Below are positions 1,248 to 29,949 of a stretch of DNA of 32,000 nt, in pieces. Position 1 is the stretch's first letter; every line of letters starts with the position of its first letter. Source of the stretch: Candidatus Lokiarchaeum ossiferum (GTDB taxonomy: Archaea > Asgardarchaeota > Lokiarchaeia > Sigyniarchaeales > Promethearchaeaceae). The stretch is from the NCBI GenBank assembly GCA_025839675.1, contig CP104013.1, positions 3,360,001 through 3,392,000 on the forward strand. Direction: 5' to 3'. The translations under genes and the position numbers were made by a program. Below the pieces are notes generated by a model. The model had not been told where the DNA came from. It saw nothing but the letters and a program-made list of their open reading frames with translations, and did no database searches.

Positions 1248-1332
1248 GAGAATTTAAAGTAAATATCAATATGTATTAGACTTTATTATGATGGAAAAAA
1301 AAGATCGTTGTAAATAGTTTTCTAAAACAGAA

Positions 1333-2508
1333 TTATAATTTACCCAAAACAGCCAGTTTGAGGATTTTTTTGTAGCGTTCGCTTTCAATTAAATAGAGGA
1401 TCGAGGGAGAAATAAAATCAACCGCTTGGAATACACGGCGGATTTCTTGAGCAAATCGAATTTTCTCGGGATCGATGACAAAGTCCGAAGCCCGCGCTGA
1501 TTGAACTGTTTCAATCCACTTCACGGGATTTTTTTGTTCCATAATCCCATCCAAAGCATAAATTCCTAAATCTGTTAATCCTGCAGCTAATAATGCACTA
1601 GCCTCCATTTTATACAATTTAGGATCCGTTTGAACTGCTCGAACATCTGCGACTCCCAGATTTGTTATGCCTAATGTAATGGAAGCTTTTTCTGCTCCAT
1701 ATTTTTCCACAAATTCTTTGGCATAGACATGTATCAAATGCCGATAATCCTCATGAGATACAATCCCTTTCGATGCAGAAACATAATCTGTGTTAAAGAT
1801 CATATAGTTGATTTGATCCCAATCCACTGTTGAAACCGGCACTGTCATAAAATCTTGAATCCGGAAATCACCATCAACATGGTCCTCATAAGCTAAGGGT
1901 AATGCAACCGCAATTGCCTTCGTACCGTATTCATGCATCATTTCTTGCATCGCGGTAAATTTTGCAAAGGAAGCTTCAAATCGTTCTTTATTCATGTTCG
2001 TTTTGACCGTTTTTATAAAGCCATTGATACCCGCCAGCTTGTCCAATCCCGTTTTTTCTTTTATTTTTTTCCAAATTTTCTTCTTTTTCCGTTTTGATTT
2101 CACTTTATCTGTTTCCTTGCGGATTTTCTCGGCGATTTTTGCTTCTTTTGGATCGGTAGGGGGTTCTAAATCTACTAATACTCCTTCGGGGATCGCGAAA
2201 CCATGATCTTTATACCATTCCAAAAGATTTTGGACTAAAGCATGGAATAATTCGACCGTGATTTCATTGGCATAATAGCCATCTTCCACATCCAGTAAAG
2301 GCCATGGAATCATATGTCCCTCAATTCCTAGGTCGCGGAATTTTTCCATCATTTGTAGAAAATCTTCCCCTTCCAGATCCTTTGGAAGAATTCTCATTGC
2401 GCAATAGGTCCCTGTTTTTGCCAGTACGTCAATTGCACCCTTCTCTATCATTTGGTGTGGGGTTAAAAATTCCACAGGAAAAATTATTCGATTAAATTGT
2501 TCAACCAT
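1333..2508 (-). CDS. Hypothetical protein, enzyme-like (possibly a TIM-barrel hydrolase-like fold), with an internal lysine-rich insert
   Basis: 391 aa intact ORF with an ATG start. I recognise no diagnostic motif. Residues ~121-157 are extremely basic (KEAKIAEKIRKETDKVKSKRKKKKIWKKIKEK). The antisense ORFs at 1994-2206 and 2304-2495 are shadows. Confidence 0.55.
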   Translation of the reverse strand: MVEQFNRIIFPVEFLTPHQMIEKGAIDVLAKTGTYCAMRILPKDLEGEDFLQMMEKFRDLGIEGHMIPWPLLDVEDGYYANEITVELFHALVQNLLEWYKDHGFAIPEGVLVDLEPPTDPKEAKIAEKIRKETDKVKSKRKKKKIWKKIKEKTGLDKLAGINGFIKTVKTNMNKERFEASFAKFTAMQEMMHEYGTKAIAVALPLAYEDHVDGDFRIQDFMTVPVSTVDWDQINYMIFNTDYVSASKGIVSHEDYRHLIHVYAKEFVEKYGAEKASITLGITNLGVADVRAVQTDPKLYKMEASALLAAGLTDLGIYALDGIMEQKNPVKWIETVQSARASDFVIDPEKIRFAQEIRRVFQAVDFISPSILYLIESERYKKILKLAVLGKL

Positions 2509-2539
2509 GTTAAATTAAGCCTATATTTATTTTGTGAAG

Positions 2540-3460
2540 TTAGTTTTGCAACCAAAAAAGGATCCGAGCCATGAGAGGGGCTTGATTTCCAGCGAATTCA
2601 TGACCTCCTTGATCAAAAACCATACAATTAACATCAGGTAATCGCATTTGAAACTTATTATGCTCAAAATTTTCTTTGAACAACACAACATTATCGTTTT
2701 TTGAATGGGCAAGAAAAATACGATTTCCATATGAGACTTCCTCCTTGATTTGACACACTGGGGATTCTTCATGAAATGCGGTTAAGAATGCTTCTTCGTC
2801 AGGAATGTGACGTACAACTGATTTGTAAAGCATGCGTTTAAAAAAAGACCCTTGCTTGAAGTGTTGTTCAAACATGACTCGCGAATCATGGGGGGCACAT
2901 AGGGCAATAATTTTCCCGACCCGTTCTTCATGAAGAAGTTGCGATAAAACCATAGAACCTCCAAAGGAAGCTCCGATAGCGAAAATATGTTGTTGATCCA
3001 CTCCGATGTGATTATATACCCATTCAAAGGCGAAAGGAACATCTTGGTAAACCCGATGAACGAACGATTCACTCAAAGTTTTCAAAATATGTGGTTCTCC
3101 TGCTATTCGAGAATTTCCAGAAGCACGAAAATCATACGCAAAAACTCGATACCCTGCAAGGCATAAAGAACTTAAAAATACTTCAAAATTATAATCTTGG
3201 GCAAATCCTCCGAGTCCATGAAAGAAAATGATACTGGGAGCGGTTTCGGGAGTCACATCAGAAGAATATATGTAACCTTGCAATTCGCGACCATCATCCA
3301 TCAAGATTTTCTCTTGTTTACGCGTAATTTGTTGGGATTGCACCCAATGTTGCTTATTTTTTTCTATTCTTCGGATTCGCATTCCATGAAATACAGATTT
3401 TTGTAACTTTTCTATCAATATTCCACTGAGTATCCCCCCCAAAAATGAAATCAATGCCAT
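2540..3460 (-). CDS. Alpha/beta-fold hydrolase with N-terminal membrane anchor
   Basis: 306 aa with an N-terminal hydrophobic helix (MALISFLGGILSGILI). It has an oxyanion-type FFHGLGGF, a nucleophile elbow GASFGG (GxSxG), and a late GGHEF histidine. Confidence 0.75.
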   Translation of the reverse strand: MALISFLGGILSGILIEKLQKSVFHGMRIRRIEKNKQHWVQSQQITRKQEKILMDDGRELQGYIYSSDVTPETAPSIIFFHGLGGFAQDYNFEVFLSSLCLAGYRVFAYDFRASGNSRIAGEPHILKTLSESFVHRVYQDVPFAFEWVYNHIGVDQQHIFAIGASFGGSMVLSQLLHEERVGKIIALCAPHDSRVMFEQHFKQGSFFKRMLYKSVVRHIPDEEAFLTAFHEESPVCQIKEEVSYGNRIFLAHSKNDNVVLFKENFEHNKFQMRLPDVNCMVFDQGGHEFAGNQAPLMARILFWLQN

Positions 3461-3541: not shown

Positions 3542-4648
3542 ATGATAATAGAAACAAAACTAGGAAAAAAAACAATCTCAGAAATTTGGCAAGTTCCAAT
3601 GGCTATACAAAAATCTGTTTTCCAAAAGCAAAATCGCGCCCTTATACGTGAGATTTCCCGAGGAATAATTAGTAGTGGATGTGTATCTATCTATATCTTT
3701 GGTTCTGGTACGAGTTATCACGCGGGATTGGTGTCAACCTATTGGTTTTCTCAACTTGCAAAGTTTCCTACCCATTGTGAATTAGCGCCTGAATTTCCTT
3801 ATCTTATTGAACCCATCATAGCTCCAAAGCATGTTGCGATATGTATCAGTCAATCTGGAGAATCCGAATTAACTGTATATTCTGCTCAAAAATCAAAGGA
3901 CAAGGGGGCCCATGTTATCGCTATCACTAATAATGAGTCCAGTACAATTACAAAGATTGCAGGCCATCGGACTTTGGTTACCCAAGCAGGTCCAGAAGAA
4001 AGTATTTTAGCCACCAAAACTTACATCTCTGAATTGGCTGTGTTAGCGGCTTTAGCTATTGATTTGGCTTTCTTGCGAAAAAAAATCTCAGATGATGAAT
4101 ACAATTCTATCTGGGATGAGTTTAAAACAGTCCCCAAATTAATTGAACTAACTTTGCCTCTTTTTCATAAAGAAATTCGCACAATTGCCCCATTTTTCAA
4201 GTTTTCTCGAAATTGTTTTGTTATTGGAGCGGGTCCTGATTATGCTAATTGCATGGAAGCCGCTTTAAAATTAAAGGAAGGTGCTCGAATTTTTTCTCAA
4301 GCTTTTTCTACTGCTGAAACACCTCATGGTCCTATTACTCTTCTTTCAGATCCTCGGGATGCGTTTGTATTATGTATCATTCCGCGACCTGAAGCGGAAT
4401 CCCGACATAAAGATATTGTAAAATTGATTTCTCGATTAAAAAAACGTGGTGTAACTATTTTAGGCATAAAAAATCCTATCGATGACACACTTGACTTGGA
4501 TATTGCAATAGATATTCCAAAATGCAGCGAAATTTTTCACCCTCTCTTTTCCATTATTCCTGTACAGCTTCTCGTAGTAGAAATTGCCACTATCCAAAAT
4601 ATTGATTGCGATCGCCCAAAAGATCTTTCTAAAATATCGTCTCTATAG
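3542..4648 (+). CDS. Double-SIS-domain sugar-phosphate isomerase/deaminase (GlmS isomerase-domain-like, no glutaminase domain)
   Basis: 368 aa. Motifs seen: IFGSGTSYHAG, CISQSGESELT, a second SIS half (VIGAGPDYANCMEAALKLKE), and a GlmS-type C-terminal tail DRPKDLSKISSL. The stop is followed immediately by T6. Confidence 0.75.
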   Translation: MIIETKLGKKTISEIWQVPMAIQKSVFQKQNRALIREISRGIISSGCVSIYIFGSGTSYHAGLVSTYWFSQLAKFPTHCELAPEFPYLIEPIIAPKHVAICISQSGESELTVYSAQKSKDKGAHVIAITNNESSTITKIAGHRTLVTQAGPEESILATKTYISELAVLAALAIDLAFLRKKISDDEYNSIWDEFKTVPKLIELTLPLFHKEIRTIAPFFKFSRNCFVIGAGPDYANCMEAALKLKEGARIFSQAFSTAETPHGPITLLSDPRDAFVLCIIPRPEAESRHKDIVKLISRLKKRGVTILGIKNPIDDTLDLDIAIDIPKCSEIFHPLFSIIPVQLLVVEIATIQNIDCDRPKDLSKISSL

Positions 4649-19303: not shown

Positions 19304-20782
19304 TTAAAAAATAGCAGTTATTAGTGTTAGTAAAACAATTATTGCAAACCCAAAAATTCGAAAAATACTTTCCTTTTTCAACGATGGAAGGAACAAGCTC
19401 TTTTTCAACGTGTGAAAATCCCCTACTGAAATGAATTTTGTAGTAGGGGGATATATTTGATATGAATCTTGAGAATTTCCATAATTAAAAACAAGGTAAT
19501 TTAGTGGAATTAACAGATAGATGAAACACCCACAAATAATTACACCCCACATAATCGTCGTAAGTATCAAATCCACCAGGATTAATCCATTGAATATATT
19601 GAGAAATCGCCAACTCCAAAGAAATTCAAGCGTTGACAAATAAACCAATAATCCCATTCCAAGGATATCAGTAAAGTTTACACTTCGGAATTGAGTTTTT
19701 CTCCATAGACCATTTTTTAGATCAATATCACAAAATCGGATGGATGTCCAATATCGACCATTTTTTACTCTATATTTAGATTTTTTCTGATGCTGATCAA
19801 TTGTCACTAGGGTTTCTTCGGAAAGATCGTTTTGGAAGGCTTGTAATAGAACGTAAGCTCCAAAAGTCAATCCAACCATGGAAAGATCGGTTCCCCATAA
19901 AAATTCCGCGGAAGTACCTATGATCGATGCGATTAAAACAATCATACTAAAAATGATTCGAAAATAATTTCGTTGCTTCCCTTGTTTGCCCCCTTTTGAA
20001 TCATTTTGATTGCGAAACACTTCCCACAAATTCTCTTCAGTTTCTGATGGATCAATATAGAGATCCAAAAGTTTGCAAACTTCTTCGGAGATTTCTTGAT
20101 TTTTTTTCATGGGGAAAAAATTTAAAATATATTTCTTCCATTCCGAATCGAAGGTTAACTGATGGTTTGGGTATAATAAGATGAAAATTGCCACCAGTAT
20201 ATCTATAAGTGCAGTAATTACCATCATGGTGGGGAGGATTTCATCTTGGGCGAGGGGTTCTCCGAACAGTGGAATTCCAAATTGCAAAATTCTTACTGCC
20301 ATCGGAATGAACAGAAGAATCCAGGTATGTTTAAACTTTAAACCAGTGTTAGTATATTTAATTTGGTTAATATCGGGGAGATTTATCTCAGAAAAAGTGG
20401 GAAACACGAGTTTTCTCTCTTGTATCTTGCATAAAGAACCGTTGTTGGCGATCTCAATTTTCTTCATAGAAAATAGGCAATATATAAGCATAAATATCCC
20501 CACAATAAGCGGAATTAATCCAACTGTATAGAAGAAAGAAACCCCTCCCAGAAAGACGGCAATTCCTTGCCCAATATATTCGCCTGTTGTAGGATGTTCA
20601 GGATGCCCAATTAAATTTCCAAGTAGGTTGTAATCTAATATTCCAACTATAAAAAGAGCAAGTCCTGCAAGCAAATAACTCCATGGAAGAGAGACAAAAT
20701 GAACTGTTTCTCCTTTCATCTCTTGCTTTTCATACGTAATGTGATTTTCCTTTAATTGAGGTATTGAAGGTTCGCGTTGCAT
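19304..20782 (-). CDS. Uncharacterised polytopic membrane protein, family B' (paralog of 11945-13816)
   Basis: 492 aa with many TM helices. It shares loop modules with B (IQERKLVFPTFSEINLPDINQIKYTNTGLKFKHTWILL; KKSKYRVKNGRYWTSIRF...VNFTDILGMGLL). The ATG lies 3 nt after the A' stop, with GGAGGGAT upstream. Confidence 0.65.
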   Translation of the reverse strand: MQREPSIPQLKENHITYEKQEMKGETVHFVSLPWSYLLAGLALFIVGILDYNLLGNLIGHPEHPTTGEYIGQGIAVFLGGVSFFYTVGLIPLIVGIFMLIYCLFSMKKIEIANNGSLCKIQERKLVFPTFSEINLPDINQIKYTNTGLKFKHTWILLFIPMAVRILQFGIPLFGEPLAQDEILPTMMVITALIDILVAIFILLYPNHQLTFDSEWKKYILNFFPMKKNQEISEEVCKLLDLYIDPSETEENLWEVFRNQNDSKGGKQGKQRNYFRIIFSMIVLIASIIGTSAEFLWGTDLSMVGLTFGAYVLLQAFQNDLSEETLVTIDQHQKKSKYRVKNGRYWTSIRFCDIDLKNGLWRKTQFRSVNFTDILGMGLLVYLSTLEFLWSWRFLNIFNGLILVDLILTTIMWGVIICGCFIYLLIPLNYLVFNYGNSQDSYQIYPPTTKFISVGDFHTLKKSLFLPSLKKESIFRIFGFAIIVLLTLITAIF

Positions 20783-20785
20783 GGT

Positions 20786-22372
20786 TTAATATCCCTCCAA
20801 GTATCCGTAATATTTCAGCATGTAATACGGGAGTGTATATGCCGCACCCGCATATTGTCTGATTGTGCTCGTAGTATTGAAAATGTTGACTCCATCTTCT
20901 TGGTATGGATTGCGATTCCATGAAGACGTAGTAGGATTCATCATTTCGATCGTGGCTGGTTTTAAATACCTCTCGCGAAATATTGCATCTTGTAACCCAT
21001 ACGTAAGCCACTGATACGTCGACCCAAAGGCGGTATTATCCACAAAATCCTTCCATTTTGCAATATTGGGATCAATGGTTGTCCAATCCCCCCCTAATTC
21101 ACTTCGGGCAATTGTTTGATTTCTTCCTCCGCATGTGGTATCTAAAGGAACCAAATTGAATTCATTGAATCGCCACAGTTGATCTAAGATATCCCATCGA
21201 ATATCATCTACTTTAAAAGATGCTTGTTTTTGAGATAAACTCGCTGCAGTAAGATAAACTGCATTTAAAAAGCCATTCCGATGTCCTCGATAGCTCGAAT
21301 AGGTTTTAGCTTGGAAATTTTGAAAATAGAGATCCACTAATCTTGGATCGTCTTCAACTAAAAATAAGCCCAAAACGACCATATTCTCGAAATATTGACT
21401 GTAATAATTGTCTATGTTGTCCATTTTATTTACAAACGGTGTCCGATTTACTTTTCGTTCTTTCACCAAGAAATATTGAAACAACTGCTCATATCTGACA
21501 TTTTCGGGATCTACTCGCATAGCCATCTTCGTGAGAAGCAATTTCCATTGAGAATAGCATGGAACCTGGAGATGAACTCCATTTGGTTTCCCATCGCCAG
21601 TCATTTCTTGCCAAAAACTACTTAAAAACCCTTCCATGGCTTGTAAAATGATCAATCTGGTTATTTCTTGCACTTCGGGCACATCCTGAACCAGCATCAA
21701 AGTGGCTGCAAGTCCCAAGAAATAGCCTCCTAATTCATCCTTACTCGTATAGAGACGAATTCTCCAGTCTGAATATTTCCCGGTGCCATTGAAGTGGCGA
21801 AATCCCTCATCAAAAATCCAAGTATAATTTCCATCAAAGCGTTGATCTGGGGAAGCATAAAAACGACCTATCGAAGTTCCCGGAAAATTTGGTCCCAAAC
21901 CTCCATTCGGAATTTCTATTAACAATCGTAGACCATAAAGCATTTTTTGCACTAATAAAAGCGCCTGGGCTTTTTCTTTCCCTTCAGGCAAAGAAGCATA
22001 ATCATAACACGCCGCCACCAGATTTTCAGAAGTGTGTAAAGCTCCATTATCGGTTCCATCATAGCTGATTATTTCCCCGGTAGATACATTTTTCACAAAT
22101 GATTGACTCAAATTCATCTTAAGGTGTTGTTCTTGGAATAATTCAAATTCGCGTCCAATATCTTCTAAGCGACTGAGATTGATAACACTTAATGGGTAAA
22201 AATCTACAGTTTCGGGAGGTGTTTCCATATAATCTGTTAAATCCGGTACTAATATACCCAAATAAAATGCAAAGTAAAATCCCCCAAAAATCAATGGGAT
22301 TAAAATCAGGGTGCTTTTCATAATTTTCCGCAGTTTATTCCACTTTTTATTTTGGATTTTCATTATCTTCAC
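20786..22372 (-). CDS. Uncharacterised signal-anchored extracytoplasmic protein, family A' (paralog of 10404-11942)
   Basis: 528 aa with an N-terminal anchor (STLILIPLIFGGFYFAFYLGILV). Shared blocks: TDNGALHTS, IEIPNGGLGPNFPG, RHFNGTGKYSDWRIRLYTSKDELGGYFLGLA, LLLTKMAMRVDPENV, NYYSQYF, HRNGFLN. Confidence 0.7.
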   Translation of the reverse strand: MKIMKIQNKKWNKLRKIMKSTLILIPLIFGGFYFAFYLGILVPDLTDYMETPPETVDFYPLSVINLSRLEDIGREFELFQEQHLKMNLSQSFVKNVSTGEIISYDGTDNGALHTSENLVAACYDYASLPEGKEKAQALLLVQKMLYGLRLLIEIPNGGLGPNFPGTSIGRFYASPDQRFDGNYTWIFDEGFRHFNGTGKYSDWRIRLYTSKDELGGYFLGLAATLMLVQDVPEVQEITRLIILQAMEGFLSSFWQEMTGDGKPNGVHLQVPCYSQWKLLLTKMAMRVDPENVRYEQLFQYFLVKERKVNRTPFVNKMDNIDNYYSQYFENMVVLGLFLVEDDPRLVDLYFQNFQAKTYSSYRGHRNGFLNAVYLTAASLSQKQASFKVDDIRWDILDQLWRFNEFNLVPLDTTCGGRNQTIARSELGGDWTTIDPNIAKWKDFVDNTAFGSTYQWLTYGLQDAIFRERYLKPATIEMMNPTTSSWNRNPYQEDGVNIFNTTSTIRQYAGAAYTLPYYMLKYYGYLEGY

Positions 22373-24164: not shown

Positions 24165-25274
24165 TTAATATGGGGACAAATCCGAATTCATGATTTGATA
24201 CCCGGAACTACGTACAATCGCCGATTTCAAGAATTGATGCCCAATGTTCACTGTGGATCCATCTCCACCGAAATGAATGATGTAAGGCACGGTTTGCTTG
24301 ATCCCTTTGTTCTTCATGATCCGATACGCGGTTGAAGCGGCATCGGCACAGGTAGCTCCACTCTCGAAGAGTTGGTGCATCCAGGATGCTTGCCACGAAG
24401 AGACATCATCTTTGCTGGTTGCGACTTCTAAACAACACGTATTGTTGAAATAGAGAATGTCTTTTCCTGCCACCATATCGGCCGCTGATCCGACTTGATT
24501 AATGACCATCCCTGCACCGCAGCCCGGGCAAAGACCGTGGCCTGGATTTATATGATGTTGGTCTTTCACTTTCACCATTTGGACTGCATACCGCAAGACT
24601 TTGTCATCTCCGCCGAAAGCTTGCAAGAGCTTGTTCAGGTTGGTATTGCGAGCCTTGACTTGAGTCATGATTTCGTCAATATTTTTCTCTAAAAATTCGG
24701 GTTTCAAGAGATGGCGGAATTTACCTTGGGATTTGATGAGATCTAAGACCTTGTCTTCATCCGTGGCGATATATTCGCCGTTGGCTTCATCACCCTTGGC
24801 CATGCCAGGAGCCTTATTGTAATAGTAGGTAGGCGTGCCGTCCTTCACCTTCATAGTGATTAGAGGCCAGTAGCCCGATTCAGTGGCGAGTTTGGCCACC
24901 TTTAGGGTGTCTTTTCCAGCATGTCGCCATCCTCGAGGACATGGGGCGTAAATTTGGATAAAGGCTCCCCCCTCTGTTTTCATAGCATCCATTACTTTGC
25001 CCATTAAGTCCATCGGATAAGCAATGTTAGCTGTTGCGAAATAAGCACTTTTATGACCTAACATAGAAAAACCGGGAATGAAGTCTTCTTTAATACCTAT
25101 CTTACCTTTGACTTTTTCGCCACCAGGACCTGTGGTAGTGCTTGCTCCGAATGGTGTGGTGCCCGATTCTTGAATTCCGGTATTCATAAAGGCTTCATTG
25201 TCGTACGAAATGTATAGGACGGAATGACGTTCTTTCCGTGCTAAAATATCTTCCATTTTAATTGTTGTTGTCAT
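24165..25274 (-). CDS. porB: 2-oxoacid (pyruvate-type):ferredoxin oxidoreductase beta subunit (TPP-binding), with circularly permuted motif order
   Basis: I place the start at ATG 25274, with GGTGAT upstream, 13 nt after the porA stop; this gives 369 aa. It contains YDNEAFMNTGIQ, CPRGW, QGKFRHL, PGHGLCPGCG, NNTCC and GGDGS. All are PorB hallmarks, but the usual C-terminal half comes first. Confidence 0.8.
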   Translation of the reverse strand: MTTTIKMEDILARKERHSVLYISYDNEAFMNTGIQESGTTPFGASTTTGPGGEKVKGKIGIKEDFIPGFSMLGHKSAYFATANIAYPMDLMGKVMDAMKTEGGAFIQIYAPCPRGWRHAGKDTLKVAKLATESGYWPLITMKVKDGTPTYYYNKAPGMAKGDEANGEYIATDEDKVLDLIKSQGKFRHLLKPEFLEKNIDEIMTQVKARNTNLNKLLQAFGGDDKVLRYAVQMVKVKDQHHINPGHGLCPGCGAGMVINQVGSAADMVAGKDILYFNNTCCLEVATSKDDVSSWQASWMHQLFESGATCADAASTAYRIMKNKGIKQTVPYIIHFGGDGSTVNIGHQFLKSAIVRSSGYQIMNSDLSPY

Positions 25275-25287
25275 GATAATCACCTGC

Positions 25288-26511
25288 TTAAAAGCGAACC
25301 TCCCACATTTTGTCCTTAGTTTCGCGGACACCGAGATAATCGTAGAGGCGTCCTTTGTTATCAGAGACCTTTTCCATTTTCTTGGCGGCATATTCGATTT
25401 CATCCTTGGTTACATCACGTCCACCGAGTCCTACAATAAGAGAGCGAAGAACGACAGGAAGGCCAAAGAGGGCACTGGCAACGGATTTGCCTACTGGAGG
25501 TAAGATACCAGAGAGGTCATCGTCTTTTTCAAGAATAACAATTTTTTCAATGCCATGATCTTCCACGAGTTTACGGAGTTGGGCGGCAGGGAACGGTCGC
25601 CATGATCGGAGTTTGATCATACCAATACCGTGCTTTTCGAGACCCCAGCTCAAGATGTTACCACACATGGAACCCATAGTGAGAATAACGGTCTTGGAAG
25701 GGTTATCGAGGTTGTATTCTTCAATCAGATGATAAGAGCGTCCGGTCATCTTTTCAAAATCACGGAAAGCAGTTTCCATATGACCAAAGACTTCTTCCTT
25801 GGCTAAATCTTGACCTAATCGTCCTTCAGCAAAGTAATCAGGGGTGACAATGCCACCCCAAGTACCGGTGTTTTCAGGATTCAAGTGATGGCGTGGTTTT
25901 TTCGGAGTGTATTTTAACACATCGGCATCAGGAATGGCCATAAACTTTTGGGCGCTGTGGGAAATAATAAATCCATCGTGCACAAATTGGGTTGGGAAGA
26001 GGGAATCTTCACTAATACGGGAAGCAATAATGGAAGAGTCATAGGTTTCCTGCACGTTTTCGGACACAATAACATTCCAGCCCATATCAATAAGGGTGAA
26101 TTCCCATGAGTTCCAAATGGACAAGTTGGGAGAGTTAAAAGCACGAGCTGAGATTAACATAGTTAAGGGTACTCGCCATCCAACAGCCATGGGTAGACAT
26201 TCGGTCATTAATAATAATCCTTGGGATGCAGTGGCCGAAAAAGTTCTAGCCCCTGCAGCACAAGCAGCAGTGCTGAATGCACATGCGGCTAATTCAGATT
26301 CAACGTTAACGAAAGCAGCTTTTAATTTTCCATGGTTAACAACATCGGAAAGACCTTCAACGGATTGAGTTTGGGGTGTAATGGGGAAGGCGCAAAGCAC
26401 GTCTGGGTCTGTTTGAGCAACACCACCCGCAACGGCATAATTTCCTGTCATAGTTAATTGAACAGGTTCTTTAATTTCCTTAAAGAAAGGATTCATTGGT
26501 TGTACTGACAT
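25288..26511 (-). CDS. porA: 2-oxoacid:ferredoxin oxidoreductase alpha subunit
   Basis: 407 aa. Motifs seen: MTGNYAVAGG, FPITPQTQSVE, VESELAACAFSTAACAAGARTFSATASQGLLLM and DGFIISH. Substrate (pyruvate versus other 2-oxoacids) cannot be assigned from sequence alone. Confidence 0.85.
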   Translation of the reverse strand: MSVQPMNPFFKEIKEPVQLTMTGNYAVAGGVAQTDPDVLCAFPITPQTQSVEGLSDVVNHGKLKAAFVNVESELAACAFSTAACAAGARTFSATASQGLLLMTECLPMAVGWRVPLTMLISARAFNSPNLSIWNSWEFTLIDMGWNVIVSENVQETYDSSIIASRISEDSLFPTQFVHDGFIISHSAQKFMAIPDADVLKYTPKKPRHHLNPENTGTWGGIVTPDYFAEGRLGQDLAKEEVFGHMETAFRDFEKMTGRSYHLIEEYNLDNPSKTVILTMGSMCGNILSWGLEKHGIGMIKLRSWRPFPAAQLRKLVEDHGIEKIVILEKDDDLSGILPPVGKSVASALFGLPVVLRSLIVGLGGRDVTKDEIEYAAKKMEKVSDNKGRLYDYLGVRETKDKMWEVRF

Positions 26512-26524
26512 TATATCCTACCTC

Positions 26525-27505
26525 TTAGCATTTCATTTTCATCGTGAGTGCTTTATGCACTTCGCCGGTTTCTTTATCTTTTTTGCCTGGACAAACAGTC
26601 ACACAGGATTCACATCCTTTGCAATGGAATTCATCCACTCCAATGACATACATCTTACCATCACGTTCTTCACGGGTGATGGCTAAATCAGGGCAAATAA
26701 AGACACAATTTTGACAATTAATACAATATTCTGGGTGAAATTGGGCAACGGCCACTCCCCATGCACCTGTGTTAACACGGGCAGATCCACCATCAATAGC
26801 GCTGGTGTACCATACTCCGGCTTTGTCTAATTCTTTGGTCCCTAATAATCCTAAGGCAATATGGCTCCAATCTTTTTTATAGTCTGTTTCCAAACTAAGT
26901 TTAACACTTTCATCACATGGATAAACAGTTGTAGCGTCTGGGACGGTTTTAATTGCATCCATGTTTTTTTGAGCGATTTTTGGATTAAATTGTTCCGCAA
27001 CCGCATCAGCCAATTGATCAATACCAAAGATTTCAGGAGCCACTTTAACTAAAGCGCCTAAAATTAAGGTATTGGTAATATTTCGTCCGAGAAATTCCAA
27101 GGCGATATTGGTGGCATCAATTAAGGCAATGTTAATCGCTGGTGGATTATTTTTTCCGATGATTTCACGAATTTCTTCAATAGGGCGGCAGGTATTAATG
27201 ATTAAATAGCCCCCAGGAACAATTCCTGCAGTGCAATCTACATCGAATAATAAGCTATCATCTAATACTGCGACGTATTGAGGACTATAAACTTGTTCAT
27301 TCGTTCTTACTTTTTCATAGTCTTTCGACATTTTTGCGAATGACAAAACGGGTGCACCCATCCTTTCGGCTCCGAAGTTAGGCATACATGTACCTAATCC
27401 GTCAAAAGCCATCATACAAAGTTGGGCTGCTGTGACTGCGCCTTGTCCTCCTCGTCCGTGGAAACGGACAAGGTATCGGGGGGCGTCTTTTACATTTTCG
27501 GTCAT
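26525..27505 (-). CDS. porG: 2-oxoacid:ferredoxin oxidoreductase gamma-delta fusion subunit
   Basis: 326 aa. The N-terminal gamma domain has FHGRGGQGAVTAAQL. The C-terminal delta domain has two 4Fe-4S ferredoxin motifs (CINCQNCVFICP and CKGCESCVTVCP). Gene order G(D)-A-B is the canonical archaeal por order. Confidence 0.85.
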   Translation of the reverse strand: MTENVKDAPRYLVRFHGRGGQGAVTAAQLCMMAFDGLGTCMPNFGAERMGAPVLSFAKMSKDYEKVRTNEQVYSPQYVAVLDDSLLFDVDCTAGIVPGGYLIINTCRPIEEIREIIGKNNPPAINIALIDATNIALEFLGRNITNTLILGALVKVAPEIFGIDQLADAVAEQFNPKIAQKNMDAIKTVPDATTVYPCDESVKLSLETDYKKDWSHIALGLLGTKELDKAGVWYTSAIDGGSARVNTGAWGVAVAQFHPEYCINCQNCVFICPDLAITREERDGKMYVIGVDEFHCKGCESCVTVCPGKKDKETGEVHKALTMKMKC

Positions 27506-27774: not shown

Positions 27775-28119
27775 TTACCGCAATTTTGATTTCCAATAAT
27801 CCGGATCATAGCCGTTGGAGATGAAATCGTCCCCATCTAATCGAAAAATGACGAATGGGGAAGCCATACGAGTATTTAACTTATATTTACTTTGAATATA
27901 TGTTTTAATGGCTTTTTTTTGAACGAGATCTAGTTTATCCAAGTACATTAAATTGAAATTAAACTTATTATCTTGAAGAAAACTAATTCCCTTTTTACAA
28001 TAAACGCACGTTGTTAAGGAAAAATAAAATATTTCTACCCTTTGCTGTGTTTTTTGCTCATTTTTTTTTTTTTCCCATGGCAACTCAGGGAGAATATCTC
28101 GTGTAAGATCATATTCCAT
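27775..28119 (-). CDS. Glutaredoxin/thioredoxin-fold CxxC protein
   Basis: 114 aa. It has the pattern IFYFSLTTCVYCKKGISFLQ (beta strand, CxxC, helix), then SPFVIF...G. It contains an A13 run (T13 on the plus strand, 28061-28073) encoding EKKKN. Confidence 0.6.
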   Translation of the reverse strand: MEYDLTRDILPELPWEKKKNEQKTQQRVEIFYFSLTTCVYCKKGISFLQDNKFNFNLMYLDKLDLVQKKAIKTYIQSKYKLNTRMASPFVIFRLDGDDFISNGYDPDYWKSKLR

Positions 28120-28261: not shown

Positions 28262-29230
28262 TTATTGGAAAATGGGGATGTTAAAAATCTGCCACATGGG
28301 TTTTTGTTCCTTATTGACTTTGTCAATAGCACGTTTAACAGGGGGATAAAGTTTGATTAAATCTGAAATTTCTCCAATGACACTTTTTCCATCAGTGACT
28401 TTATGAATTAAAGAAGAGCAGAGTTCAGTTGGGGCATTCAAATAAATCGCTTCGGTTAAAATAAGTTTTTGATATAATTCAAAGGTTTGCCGTCGATAAG
28501 CTGAAAACAGGTTTTCAATGGTATCTCCAAATTCACAGTATCTATCAGCATCAGTCACTCCATAGCCAATGTCTTTTGGAAGAATATCTCCATAGATTTC
28601 TTCAAACTTCTGTCCCAATTCATTTGCTAAATCAATTAGGATTTGTTCAACCAAGTAACTCAATTTCATTTCAACATGCGTCAGTACTGCCACGATTATT
28701 TGTTGTCCTTTACTAAATCGTAACTCGCTGCTTCCTGATCGAATAAGATTCAATCCTTTTTTCCATCCCATATTTTCGGCGAACGAATTGATTGCACTCA
28801 GTAACCCTGATACCAAATTTTGGTTGACTGGACATTCTTTAATTTCGCCGTATAATTCAAAATGAAAGAGACAAAGCCCATTTTGAGCAATAATATAGAC
28901 TTCTGGGATCTCTTCCTTGTGGGGTGTCTGAAGCGAAAAATTTTGGGATAGTTCCGAAGGCTTTAATTTGATTTTGTGATTTACGGGTTTGTTCAGACCG
29001 TTGTGTGAGATAGTTGGTAAATTGTATCGTTCCTGTAGACTTTCCATGATTTGACCGAGATAATTATAATATTCTAAAAATTCGGTATAACTCATTTCAG
29101 AATTAGATTGGTTGAAAATCAAGTTTTGAAGTGCTAAATCTTGTTCAGTGGATATAATCGAAAACGATTCAAGATCTTTGTTTTTAATCGCCCATTTTAT
29201 TCGATTAGTTTTTTCCAAATCTAATTCCAT
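28262..29230 (-). CDS. Hypothetical protein with central longin/roadblock-like core; candidate GTPase partner
   Basis: 322 aa. Residues ~108-213 have a beta-beta-alpha-beta-beta-beta-alpha pattern judged by eye (VYIIAQNGLCLFHFEL / NLVSGLLSAINSFAENM / LNLIRSGSSELRFSKGQQIIVAVLT / LSYLVEQILIDLANELGQKF). It is divergent from the GTPase gene. Confidence 0.5.
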   Translation of the reverse strand: MELDLEKTNRIKWAIKNKDLESFSIISTEQDLALQNLIFNQSNSEMSYTEFLEYYNYLGQIMESLQERYNLPTISHNGLNKPVNHKIKLKPSELSQNFSLQTPHKEEIPEVYIIAQNGLCLFHFELYGEIKECPVNQNLVSGLLSAINSFAENMGWKKGLNLIRSGSSELRFSKGQQIIVAVLTHVEMKLSYLVEQILIDLANELGQKFEEIYGDILPKDIGYGVTDADRYCEFGDTIENLFSAYRRQTFELYQKLILTEAIYLNAPTELCSSLIHKVTDGKSVIGEISDLIKLYPPVKRAIDKVNKEQKPMWQIFNIPIFQ

Positions 29231-29397: not shown

Positions 29398-29949
29398 ATG
29401 TCTTCCATAGCACCATGTAAAATAGTTATCGCAGGAGATGGGGGTACAGGAAAATCGACATTGATAACCTCCAAAAATACAGGAAAATTTAAATTGGGGT
29501 CGAATATTACCATAGGTGTTGATTTTGCTTGTATGGATATTGCATTTCGGGAATCAAAATATCCCTTTTTAATTTATGACCTTGGAGGTCAACAGCGATT
29601 TCAGTTTTTACATGATTCATATATTACCGGTACCAAAGGGGCCATAGTTTTATACGACTTGACACGTGAAAAAACCTTTGATAATATATCGACCTGGTTG
29701 GCTTTACTTCATAAAGAAAATCCTGCCATGCCCATTTTATTAGCTGGATCAAAATGTGATTTAGTTCAACCGGAAGACATTTCTGATTTTAAAAAGCGAT
29801 GGAACACACTATTTCGATCTCAAGCCCCTAAATCGAATGTTATTGGTCATCATTTTATTTCTTCTAAATCGTTTGAGGGAATTGAGGATTTGTTTACTAA
29901 AATTGCAAATGAAGTCCTCCCCTCTTTCCTTCCAGTCACTTGTGCTTAA
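29398..29949 (+). CDS. Ras-superfamily small GTPase, Rab-like
   Basis: 183 aa. G1 is GDGGTGKST, switch I is ITIGVDF, G3 is DLGGQQRF, G4 is GSKCDL, G5 is SSKS. Confidence 0.85.
   Translation: MSSIAPCKIVIAGDGGTGKSTLITSKNTGKFKLGSNITIGVDFACMDIAFRESKYPFLIYDLGGQQRFQFLHDSYITGTKGAIVLYDLTREKTFDNISTWLALLHKENPAMPILLAGSKCDLVQPEDISDFKKRWNTLFRSQAPKSNVIGHHFISSKSFEGIEDLFTKIANEVLPSFLPVTCA

Follow-up and report, generated by a model that had tools for sequence, protein, structure and literature searches.

A circularly permuted PorB, divided within its thiamine diphosphate motif, in Asgard archaea

Can the beta subunit of a 2-oxoacid:ferredoxin oxidoreductase (OFOR) be cut within its thiamine diphosphate (ThDP) motif, have its two halves exchanged, and still serve as a working subunit? 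The question is raised by a 32,000-nucleotide stretch of the Candidatus Lokiarchaeum ossiferum genome (contig CP104013.1, positions 3,360,001 to 3,392,000; hereafter the window), which encodes such a subunit, PorB, on its minus strand. A sequence-only reading of the window had proposed that this PorB is circularly permuted, with the GDG...DN motif divided between the two termini, and that the gene is functional rather than decayed. We confirm the permutation, and we put the probability that the gene encodes a functional permuted beta subunit of a three-gene OFOR of the pyruvate:ferredoxin oxidoreductase (PFOR) type (porCD-porA-porB) at roughly 85%.

Order of the two halves and position of the break

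Compared with solved structures by phmmer, the window PorB found its best relative for both halves in the PFOR of M. acetivorans (PDB 9bt4; PorA, PorB, PorC, PorD; E 4e-47 overall), and the two halves matched in swapped order: residues 238–355 aligned with residues 6–115 of 9bt4_C (independent E-value 8e-15), and residues 15–143 with residues 115–241 (9e-30). The beta subunit of oxalate oxidoreductase (OOR; 5c4i_C) gave the same swapped two-piece alignment. Family models also matched in pieces. The NCBIfam PorB model (NF008819) did so in two stretches with 215.6 bits, under its 405-bit cutoff, the VorB and OOR-beta models each matched in two stretches far under cutoff, and Pfam returned only a partial TPP_enzyme_C match of 25 bits. 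Every profile and pairwise alignment was swapped, and a colinear alignment over the full family model was not obtained. On a profile built from 47 canonical single-subunit relatives the break maps to positions 118/119, between ‘...GDGGTYDIGLQALSGALER’ and ‘GDDILYVCYDNE...’, with the pieces overlapping by 0–6 profile positions, so that the GDG...N motif is split in its helix-to-strand turn. The PorB of the window is a genuine, intact circular permutation, with canonical positions ~118–294 first and ~7–118 last. The 9bt4 PorB shares with it the ThDP motif residues, four cysteine positions, CPxGW and MNTGIQ, at ~35–45% identity over the aligned halves, but is colinear (CxxC, GDG, DN, CPxGW), whereas the window protein is rotated at residue ~115.

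The gene, its segments and its motifs are laid out as follows.

24165–25274, minus strand: complete coding sequence of the permuted PorB, 369 amino acids plus stop (open reading frame and translation; two-stretch swapped alignments)
25280–25285, minus strand: Shine-Dalgarno-like AGGTGA, with a 5-nt spacer before the ATG at 25272–25274 (read directly from the sequence)
25233–25274, minus strand: N-terminal tail, residues 1–14 (MTTTIKMEDILARK), a family-specific cap modelled as a short strand (2–6) and a short helix (7–11)
24627–25232, minus strand: C-terminal ~60% of canonical PorB, residues 15–216, canonical profile 118–294 (hmmsearch 166.5 bits; phmmer)
25194–25202, minus strand: D25-N26-E27, which forms the closing half of the ThDP/Mg motif and here lies 25 residues from the N terminus (family conservation)
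24939–24941, minus strand: Cys112 (CPRGW), predicted ligand of the proximal [4Fe-4S] cluster, invariant and aligned with the CPxGW cysteine of 9bt4_C and 5c4i_C
24573–24626, minus strand: junction of old C terminus to old N terminus, residues 217–234 (LQAFGGDDKVLRYAVQMV), between the profile-aligned pieces (predicted local distance difference test score, pLDDT, 83–90)
24210–24572, minus strand: N-terminal ~40% of canonical PorB, residues 235–355, canonical profile 7–118 (hmmsearch 86 bits; phmmer)
24519–24530, minus strand: Cys249 and Cys252 (CPGC), predicted proximal [4Fe-4S] ligands, invariant and aligned with CxGC of PorB structures
24432–24434, minus strand: Cys281 (NNTC-C), predicted fourth proximal [4Fe-4S] ligand, invariant and aligned with the TGC cysteine of PorB structures
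24258–24266, minus strand: G337-D338-G339, which forms the opening half of the ThDP/Mg motif and here lies 30 residues from the C terminus; invariant in the family
24165–24209, minus strand: C-terminal tail, residues 356–369 (SSGYQIMNSDLSPY), plus stop, a family-specific cap modelled as continuing the helix after GDG (346–362)

The reading frame, the quoted motifs, the 13-nt gap after the porA stop and the ATG preceded by a Shine-Dalgarno sequence were all present as the sequence-only reading had described them. The porA stop (TAA) occupies 25288–25290 and the porB start lies 13 nt beyond it at 25274. A longer, 412-residue porB frame reaching back to 25403 and overlapping porA was considered and rejected, because the N termini of family members align at MTTTIK/MSxxERNIIK. 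The first segment (residues 15–216) holds the strand leading into D25-N26-E27, the ThDP/substrate loop, C112-PRGW, QGKFRHL and the former C-terminal helix, with YDNEAFMNTGIQ at residues 24–35, CPRGW at 112–116 and QGKFRHL at 183–189. The second (residues 235–355) holds PGHGLC249PGC252G, NNTC-C281 and G337-D338-G339 with the helix that follows it; here PGHGLCPGCG falls at 244–253, NNTCC at 277–281 and GGDGS at 336–340, and the chain stops after residue 369. At 368 of the 369 residues (the exception being S364P) the window protein agrees with the database representative that carries the name Ca. Lokiarchaeum ossiferum and lies on a contig of 6.27 Mb.

The linker between the halves is shorter than the 25 residues or so first estimated. 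Most of the 54 residues between FRHL and PGHG match the canonical C-terminal helix and N-terminal segment, which leaves a non-homologous part of at most ~18 residues (217–234), and the 54-residue spacing is exact in 120 of 120 members of the family of permuted relatives. Elsewhere in the chain, an insertion of ~13 residues (…PGMAKGDEANGEY…) at residues 154–166 (about 24777–24815), between a beta-hairpin and the QGKFRHL region, marks the Lokiarchaeum/Promethearchaeum subclade and is absent in Hel-, Thor- and Hermod-type members.

Across 36 family sequences, down to 53% identity, no variation occurs at Y24, N26, E27, C112, C249, C252, C281 or G337-D338-G339, and D25 is kept in at least 90%, whilst C280, beside Cys281, varies between serine and cysteine. 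G337-D338-G339 and D25-N26 align to the ThDP-Mg motif residues of 9bt4_C and 5c4i_C, the two halves lying at opposite ends of the chain. The four invariant cysteines match those of the proximal cluster in structural homologues, and metal binding is predicted on that basis.

AlphaFold2, given the family alignment, modelled the chain as one compact domain (predicted TM score 0.86, mean pLDDT 79.9). Confidence is low only at residues 185–193 and at residues 29–58, the latter aligned with PorB's conserved MNTGIQ... loop. The N-terminal tail scores above 90. The model begins with a strand (2–6), a helix (7–11) and a nine-residue strand (17–25) that ends at D25-N26, and it closes with a strand (331–336), the GDG loop and a 17-residue helix (346–362). 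Foldseek placed PorB of 9bt4 and OOR beta at the top with probability 1.00 and TM scores of 0.40–0.49, values as low as would be expected if a sequential aligner superposes just one half of a permuted protein. The pyrophosphate (PP) domain of ThDP enzymes has been described as six helix-turn-strand repeats with GDG...N in repeat 4 (bioRxiv 10.1101/2021.03.21.436335), which puts the break in the turn of that repeat. The idea that the new termini might meet at the ThDP site is probably wrong. Judged from the fold and the lengths of its elements, the break would lie at a helix/strand end far from the cofactor, with the termini at the end of the sheet opposite it and ~25–30 Å from the diphosphate site.

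The operon and its likely substrate

The permuted gene stands third in an operon whose other members are listed here.

25288–26511, minus strand: porA, alpha subunit, 407 amino acids, POR_N and PFOR_II domains (Pfam, NCBIfam), immediately upstream of porB
26525–27505, minus strand: porCD, fused gamma and delta subunits, 326 amino acids, first gene of the operon (Pfam POR at residues 19–186, Fer4 at 254–307)

PorCD joins a POR domain to two [4Fe-4S] ferredoxin motifs and matches the NCBIfam PorC/PorD and OOR-delta models (NF045790 over residues 47–313). The best solved relative of PorA, as of PorB, is found in the M. acetivorans PFOR (E 4e-54), whose alpha subunit shares the PITPQT motif; of these two enzymes, only that of the window has gamma and delta fused. 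The oxalate oxidoreductase of Moorella thermoacetica (PDB 5c4i/5exd/5exe) does have three subunits with a fused gamma-delta (its ‘delta’), as in the window operon. Its beta subunit is similar at the level of PorB itself (E 5e-45), and the NCBIfam OxalOxred beta and delta models find matches in the window. That beta subunit is colinear, however, the OOR alpha subunit reads YPIRPYT, with an arginine, against FPITPQT in the window PorA, and all OOR equivalog cutoffs are missed (alpha 134, beta 183 and delta 82 bits against 500, 590 and 230). The closest canonical sequences, about 40–42% identical to the permuted PorB, are beta subunits (COG1013/arCOG01601) of four-gene archaeal POR/VOR operons (P0127; DSAG12_00252–255 and 00455–458 of Promethearchaeum syntrophicum MK-D1). 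These operons encode the same set of subunits, but with gamma and delta separate and beta colinear, and a long stem separates the permuted clade from them. The Asgard enzyme therefore departs from its nearest canonical relatives, with their gamma, delta, alpha, beta operons, in two respects, the gamma-delta fusion and the beta permutation.

The PorB chain, a ThDP-binding PP domain that corresponds to domain VI of PFOR, starts at the beta-strand that ends in the Mg-binding Asp-Asn, runs through the CPxGW cysteine and the former C-terminal helix, and passes by way of the ~18-residue junction into the former N terminus with its CxxC and further cysteine, to end with the GDG loop and helix; both new ends have gained short caps conserved in the family. 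In the enzyme that we envisage, ThDP-Mg would be bound by Asp338 near the C-terminal end together with Asn26 near the N-terminal end, and the proximal cluster would be held by C112, C249, C252 and C281. With PorA and PorCD, the subunit would convert pyruvate (or a similar small 2-oxoacid) and CoA into acyl-CoA, CO2 and reduced ferredoxin, and the ferredoxin would feed the hydrogenases and formate dehydrogenase of syntrophic amino-acid fermenters.

The favoured assignment, at perhaps even odds, is a ferredoxin-reducing oxidoreductase of pyruvate or a small 2-oxoacid, acting as its canonical relatives do. We think it unlikely, though deserving of serious weight, that the functional permuted enzyme uses another 2-oxoacid (2-oxobutyrate, branched-chain or aromatic 2-oxoacids, or oxalate), or that the permutation and caps are non-neutral and have altered properties such as cofactor loading, subunit docking or oxygen tolerance. 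The equivalog scores far below cutoff, and the closeness of the beta scores for PorB, VorB and OOR-beta (216, 191 and 183 bits), would suit such an enzyme, as would the resemblance of the fused gamma-delta to the OOR delta subunit, the long stem branch of the permuted clade, and the conservation of the terminal caps and of a junction of fixed length. Asgard isolates, moreover, use 2-oxoacids derived from amino acids and carry several OFOR paralogues (PMC7015854). A different substrate is harder to reconcile with PorA, which is far nearer to the M. acetivorans PFOR alpha (187 bits) than to the OOR alpha (110 bits) and has threonine in PITPQT where OOR has arginine (PIRPYT). Furthermore, the KEGG-based annotation of the MK-D1 genes is K00169/K00170/K00172, that is, PFOR (PMC7015854), and the sequence indicates no specific alternative substrate.

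The operon (24165–27505) has a G+C content of 43.9%, against 37.1% for the 32-kb window. In a few metagenome-assembled genomes (MAGs) it is broken. A gene resembling a cold-shock protein lies on the opposite strand between porA and porB in locus L052 (5127–5372, minus strand), a 518-residue reading frame coding for a protein of unknown kind separates porCD from porA in L027 (3009–4565, plus strand), and L035 has a similar gap of ~2.4 kb.

Origin of the permutation

How did the halves come to be exchanged? The two tails had been taken for decayed remnants of the segments that adjoin them in canonical PorB, and so for the footprint of a tandem duplication trimmed at both ends. This was not borne out when the tails were scored against the canonical profile without gaps at every offset and aligned by hhalign, anchored and unanchored. 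The C-terminal tail (residues 356–369) gave negative scores at the expected positions, ranking 80–290 of about 300 offsets, and the N-terminal tail (residues 1–14) reached ~3 bits at best, in a shifted register. Alignments by hhalign anchored on GDG or DNE had near-zero column confidence inside the tails, and profile-profile alignments of the tails by themselves returned probabilities of 0.2–0.3%. In the model the C-terminal tail is helical, extending the helix after GDG, with no strand. Both 14-residue tails are nonetheless conserved within the family (majority-residue fraction 0.63).

A search of 1.84 billion representatives, with architectures judged on the 150 best, placed the whole permuted family in one or two clusters at 50% identity. 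Of those 150, 105 have the canonical order and only two are permuted (P0121 and P0122, both of the Asgard family), the rest being fragments or single-half matches; in the searches made, the permuted PorB is thus confined to Asgard archaea. No N-C-N or C-N-C intermediate was found among the 150. Apparent ‘NCC’ and ‘CC’ architectures were rejected as intermediates, being split alignments of one C-part. Six short single-stretch matches (P0210, P0192, P0180, P0172, P0217 and P0189) were likewise rejected as independent permutations or split genes; they are truncated or frameshifted canonical genes that start at ‘...GDGG’.

A neighbour-joining tree of de-permuted sequences aligned to the canonical profile recovered the permuted clade as monophyletic in 100 of 100 bootstraps, on a stem of 0.46, and did not place its sister group. 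Monophyly, together with the presence of a single permuted family among the best 150 representatives, points to a single origin, placed inside a large part of the Asgard archaea or at its base. Since a single Hel MAG contains two permuted paralogues (P0034 and P0122, with a common locus-tag prefix), the family has diversified since then.

The rearrangement arose in one event, and the probable mechanism is that two porB copies, or halves, were fused in frame and head to tail. The canonical termini add up to a median of 49 residues in 14 canonical relatives, against 54 in the permuted family, which shows that essentially complete termini were joined head to tail. Duplication with later trimming is a plausible route, albeit one with no detectable footprint. 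The other course, in which porB was split at the helix-strand turn and the parts were later fused with the C-half before the N-half, seems to us improbable on balance. It would account for tails that hold no detectable remnant of a duplication and for the lack of N-C-N or C-N-C forms among relatives, and it agrees with a junction close to the sum of the canonical termini, which duplication and trimming predicts too. Against it, no canonical PorB divided into two genes at the break position was seen, the short single-half matches being truncated or frameshifted calls. Duplication then trimming is also the commoner documented route to natural permutations.

Constraint, distribution and neighbouring genes

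If the permuted gene is indeed the functional beta subunit that we propose, it should be neither a relic nor an artefact. Among pairs of Promethearchaeum species with unsaturated synonymous divergence (dS), the ratio of non-synonymous to synonymous rates (dN/dS) is 0.06–0.08. The orthologue in MK-D1 is DSAG12_00808. Directly downstream of the MK-D1 gene lies an 85-residue archaeal histone with a lysine-rich N-terminal tail (MKNMAKKKAAPKKKAATK...; L002 7645–7902, plus strand), and because this tailed histone matches DSAG12_00807 (‘HMf-1’), the operon can be identified as DSAG12_00808–00810. In Supplementary Tables 3 and 4 of Imachi et al. (PMC7015854) its transcripts stand at 286 (beta), 372 (alpha) and 314 (gamma/delta) reads per kilobase per million (RPKM), and the metabolic reconstruction of that study enters the operon as pyruvate:ferredoxin oxidoreductase (EC 1.2.7.1). 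MK-D1 has, in addition, two gamma/delta/alpha/beta operons of four genes, whose PorB genes are annotated separately and whose transcript levels are similar, so a canonical porB beside a silent permuted copy, the combination that the sequence-only reading had named as fatal to its case, is not what this genome presents. With canonical paralogues in both MK-D1 and a Hel MAG, the permuted copy is accompanied, yet not silent.

It is very improbable that the gene is a rearranged porB pseudogene persisting beside functional canonical paralogues. Such a relic might be expected where other OFOR operons supply their own PorB, as in MK-D1, or where a canonical porB lies 3 kb from the permuted operon, as in the Hel MAG; the NCBI label of ‘hypothetical’ and the existence of truncated or split copies could be read the same way. 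A relic would hardly show so low a dN/dS, however, or keep every metal and cofactor ligand invariant. The permuted gene is, moreover, the sole beta gene of a conserved three-gene operon at every locus that reaches upstream, its transcript level in MK-D1 is on a par with that of its alpha and gamma/delta partners, and its model is a confident compact fold. The claim that the gene is functional rather than decayed is thus upheld by the invariant ligands, the dN/dS values and the transcription in MK-D1.

The damaged copies are observations in their own right. Locus L059 has, 2.5 kb downstream of the full gene, a 116-residue reading frame (3596–3946, plus strand) that repeats only the last ~102 residues of the permuted porB, at 55% identity to residues 256–357 and ending ...GGDGSIYDIGFQFLKAALIRTSTLVEMLEYLKNQK; it looks like a truncated paralogue or pseudogene. 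In a Helarchaeota MAG a permuted porB of the P0122 subfamily appears as calls of 223 and 104 residues under adjacent tags (P0297/P0298; ACTSR3_09440/09445), probably a frameshift or pseudogene in that MAG.

Several points weigh against the reading of a functional PFOR-type subunit. The activity, substrate and cofactor content of the permuted enzyme are predicted from sequence, and the substrate assignment is weak, since all NCBIfam equivalogs fall below cutoff, partly through the permutation itself. That the fold would be essentially that of canonical PorB is deduced from two strong half-alignments and a confident compact model. The evidence of expression comes from MK-D1, a relative of L. ossiferum, and given the narrow span of RPKM values there, ~290 RPKM means transcribed like its neighbours and not highly expressed. 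As MK-D1 has two further OFOR operons, the permuted enzyme is not necessarily the main PFOR.

The permuted order recurs widely. In a scan of one genome per GTDB species, a colinear permuted relative was encoded in 137 species genomes, among them the closed MK-D1 chromosome, Ca. Harpocratesius, and MAGs labelled Thor-, Hermod- and Hodarchaeota. In each of the 80 loci fetched from these, the match was a single uninterrupted high-scoring segment pair over residues ~5–366; porA lies directly upstream wherever the locus reaches that far, and a fused porCD precedes porA in nearly all. More than 120 protein clusters at 90% identity hold full-length homologues (357–369 residues, 52–80% identity) from Promethearchaeota (Asgard) assemblies. 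The exact window protein occurs on at least six independently assembled contigs from several sequencing runs, some of them longer than 0.2 Mb and 1 Mb, with an identical porA-porB junction. An assembler that collapsed or misjoined a tandem porB-porB pair could in principle produce a C-half/N-half frame, as the sequence-only reading had cautioned, but with the same frame and junction in several independent runs, the order shared by the closed chromosome of MK-D1 and, across many projects, by 136 further species genomes, unbroken matches at all 80 loci, and order and fixed junction length kept down to about 52% identity, an artefact is effectively refuted.

Locus L032 (DATKTW010000155.1), with a permuted Asgard operon, was deposited in a MAG that bears the name ‘Candidatus Nanopelagicaceae bacterium’; faulty binning is the most likely reason.

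The full-text literature that we could search, outside whose coverage many subscription-journal papers lie, holds no description of a permuted PorB or PFOR domain VI, in keeping with the expectation that none had been described. The only ‘circular permutation’ discussed there for ThDP enzymes concerns whole-domain order between classes, PP-PYR-CFX in transketolase/E1 against PYR-CFX-PP in decarboxylases/AHAS (bioRxiv 10.1101/2021.03.21.436335). Both kinds of rearrangement reorder the chain and keep the PYR/PP active site, but class shuffling moves whole domains and leaves GDG...N contiguous, whereas the permuted PorB is broken inside the PP domain, within the motif. Neither the enzyme family nor circular permutation as such is new; what is unusual, and open to experiment, is a break within the ThDP motif that is under selection and has become fixed throughout a major archaeal lineage. 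GDG-x(~26)-N is the recognition signature of all ThDP enzymes and has been held to be indivisible, and here it is naturally broken, under selection, with every ligand kept. The permuted PorB lends itself directly to work on folding, on how the cofactor is inserted and on how far an alpha/beta fold tolerates permutation.

It is doubtful, though worth stating, that this is the first natural permutation inside the ThDP-binding PP domain, cutting GDG...N, and at the same time non-neutral, so as to make a mechanistically distinct Asgard OFOR. Were that so, the moved chain ends, the caps and the gamma-delta fusion would have given a distinct OFOR to the ancestor of a large part of Asgard; one would expect a difference in cofactor loading or retention, subunit assembly, oxygen sensitivity or 2-oxoacid substrate, and a distinct enzyme would be central to the syntrophic 2-oxoacid metabolism on which models of eukaryogenesis draw.

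There are practical consequences as well. NCBI labels the permuted PorBs ‘hypothetical’, whilst in JGI and Prokka/KEGG annotation they appear, unremarked, as PorB or VorB. Because of the NCBI label and a Pfam match that covers only a fragment, metabolic reconstructions made automatically from Asgard genomes can score a PFOR-type complex as lacking its catalytic beta subunit, an omission that a hidden Markov model dedicated to the permuted form would mend. In the first Asgard archaeon brought into culture it was this operon that received the PFOR assignment, and the proposed physiology of these organisms centres on 2-oxoacid oxidation. The permuted form is also a clean clade-specific marker, and its distribution could help to date events within the phylum.

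The genes around the operon add some detail. Immediately upstream of porCD, at 27775–28119 (minus strand), lies a 114-residue glutaredoxin/thioredoxin-like reading frame (CxxC; Pfam Glutaredoxin E 3e-4), ~50% identical across Promethearchaeum loci (L002 2588–2926, L004, L006 and L007), which may be a redox partner or a mere neighbour. Further upstream is a divergent pair at 28262–29230 (minus strand) and 29398–29949 (plus strand). One member is a small GTPase of the Ras family (Pfam Ras, E 3e-30), the other a 322-residue protein whose Sybindin/longin-like match is weak (E 5e-4). This GTPase/longin-like pair also adjoins the MK-D1 operon (L002 966–1532, minus strand, and 1597–2580, plus strand); these are typical Asgard ‘eukaryotic signature’ genes. 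Two large adjoining reading frames at 19304–22372 (minus strand), of 492 residues (apparently a multi-pass membrane protein) and 528 residues, have no Pfam match at E ≤ 0.001. In the Hel MAG, the canonical-order porB 3 kb upstream of the permuted operon is cut at the contig end (L058 1–839, plus strand), and between the two (1292–3234, minus strand) lie a 478-residue cysteine-rich frame of Fe-S type and a 141-residue frame. The same pair of genes follows the permuted porB in L059 (1375–3317, minus strand).

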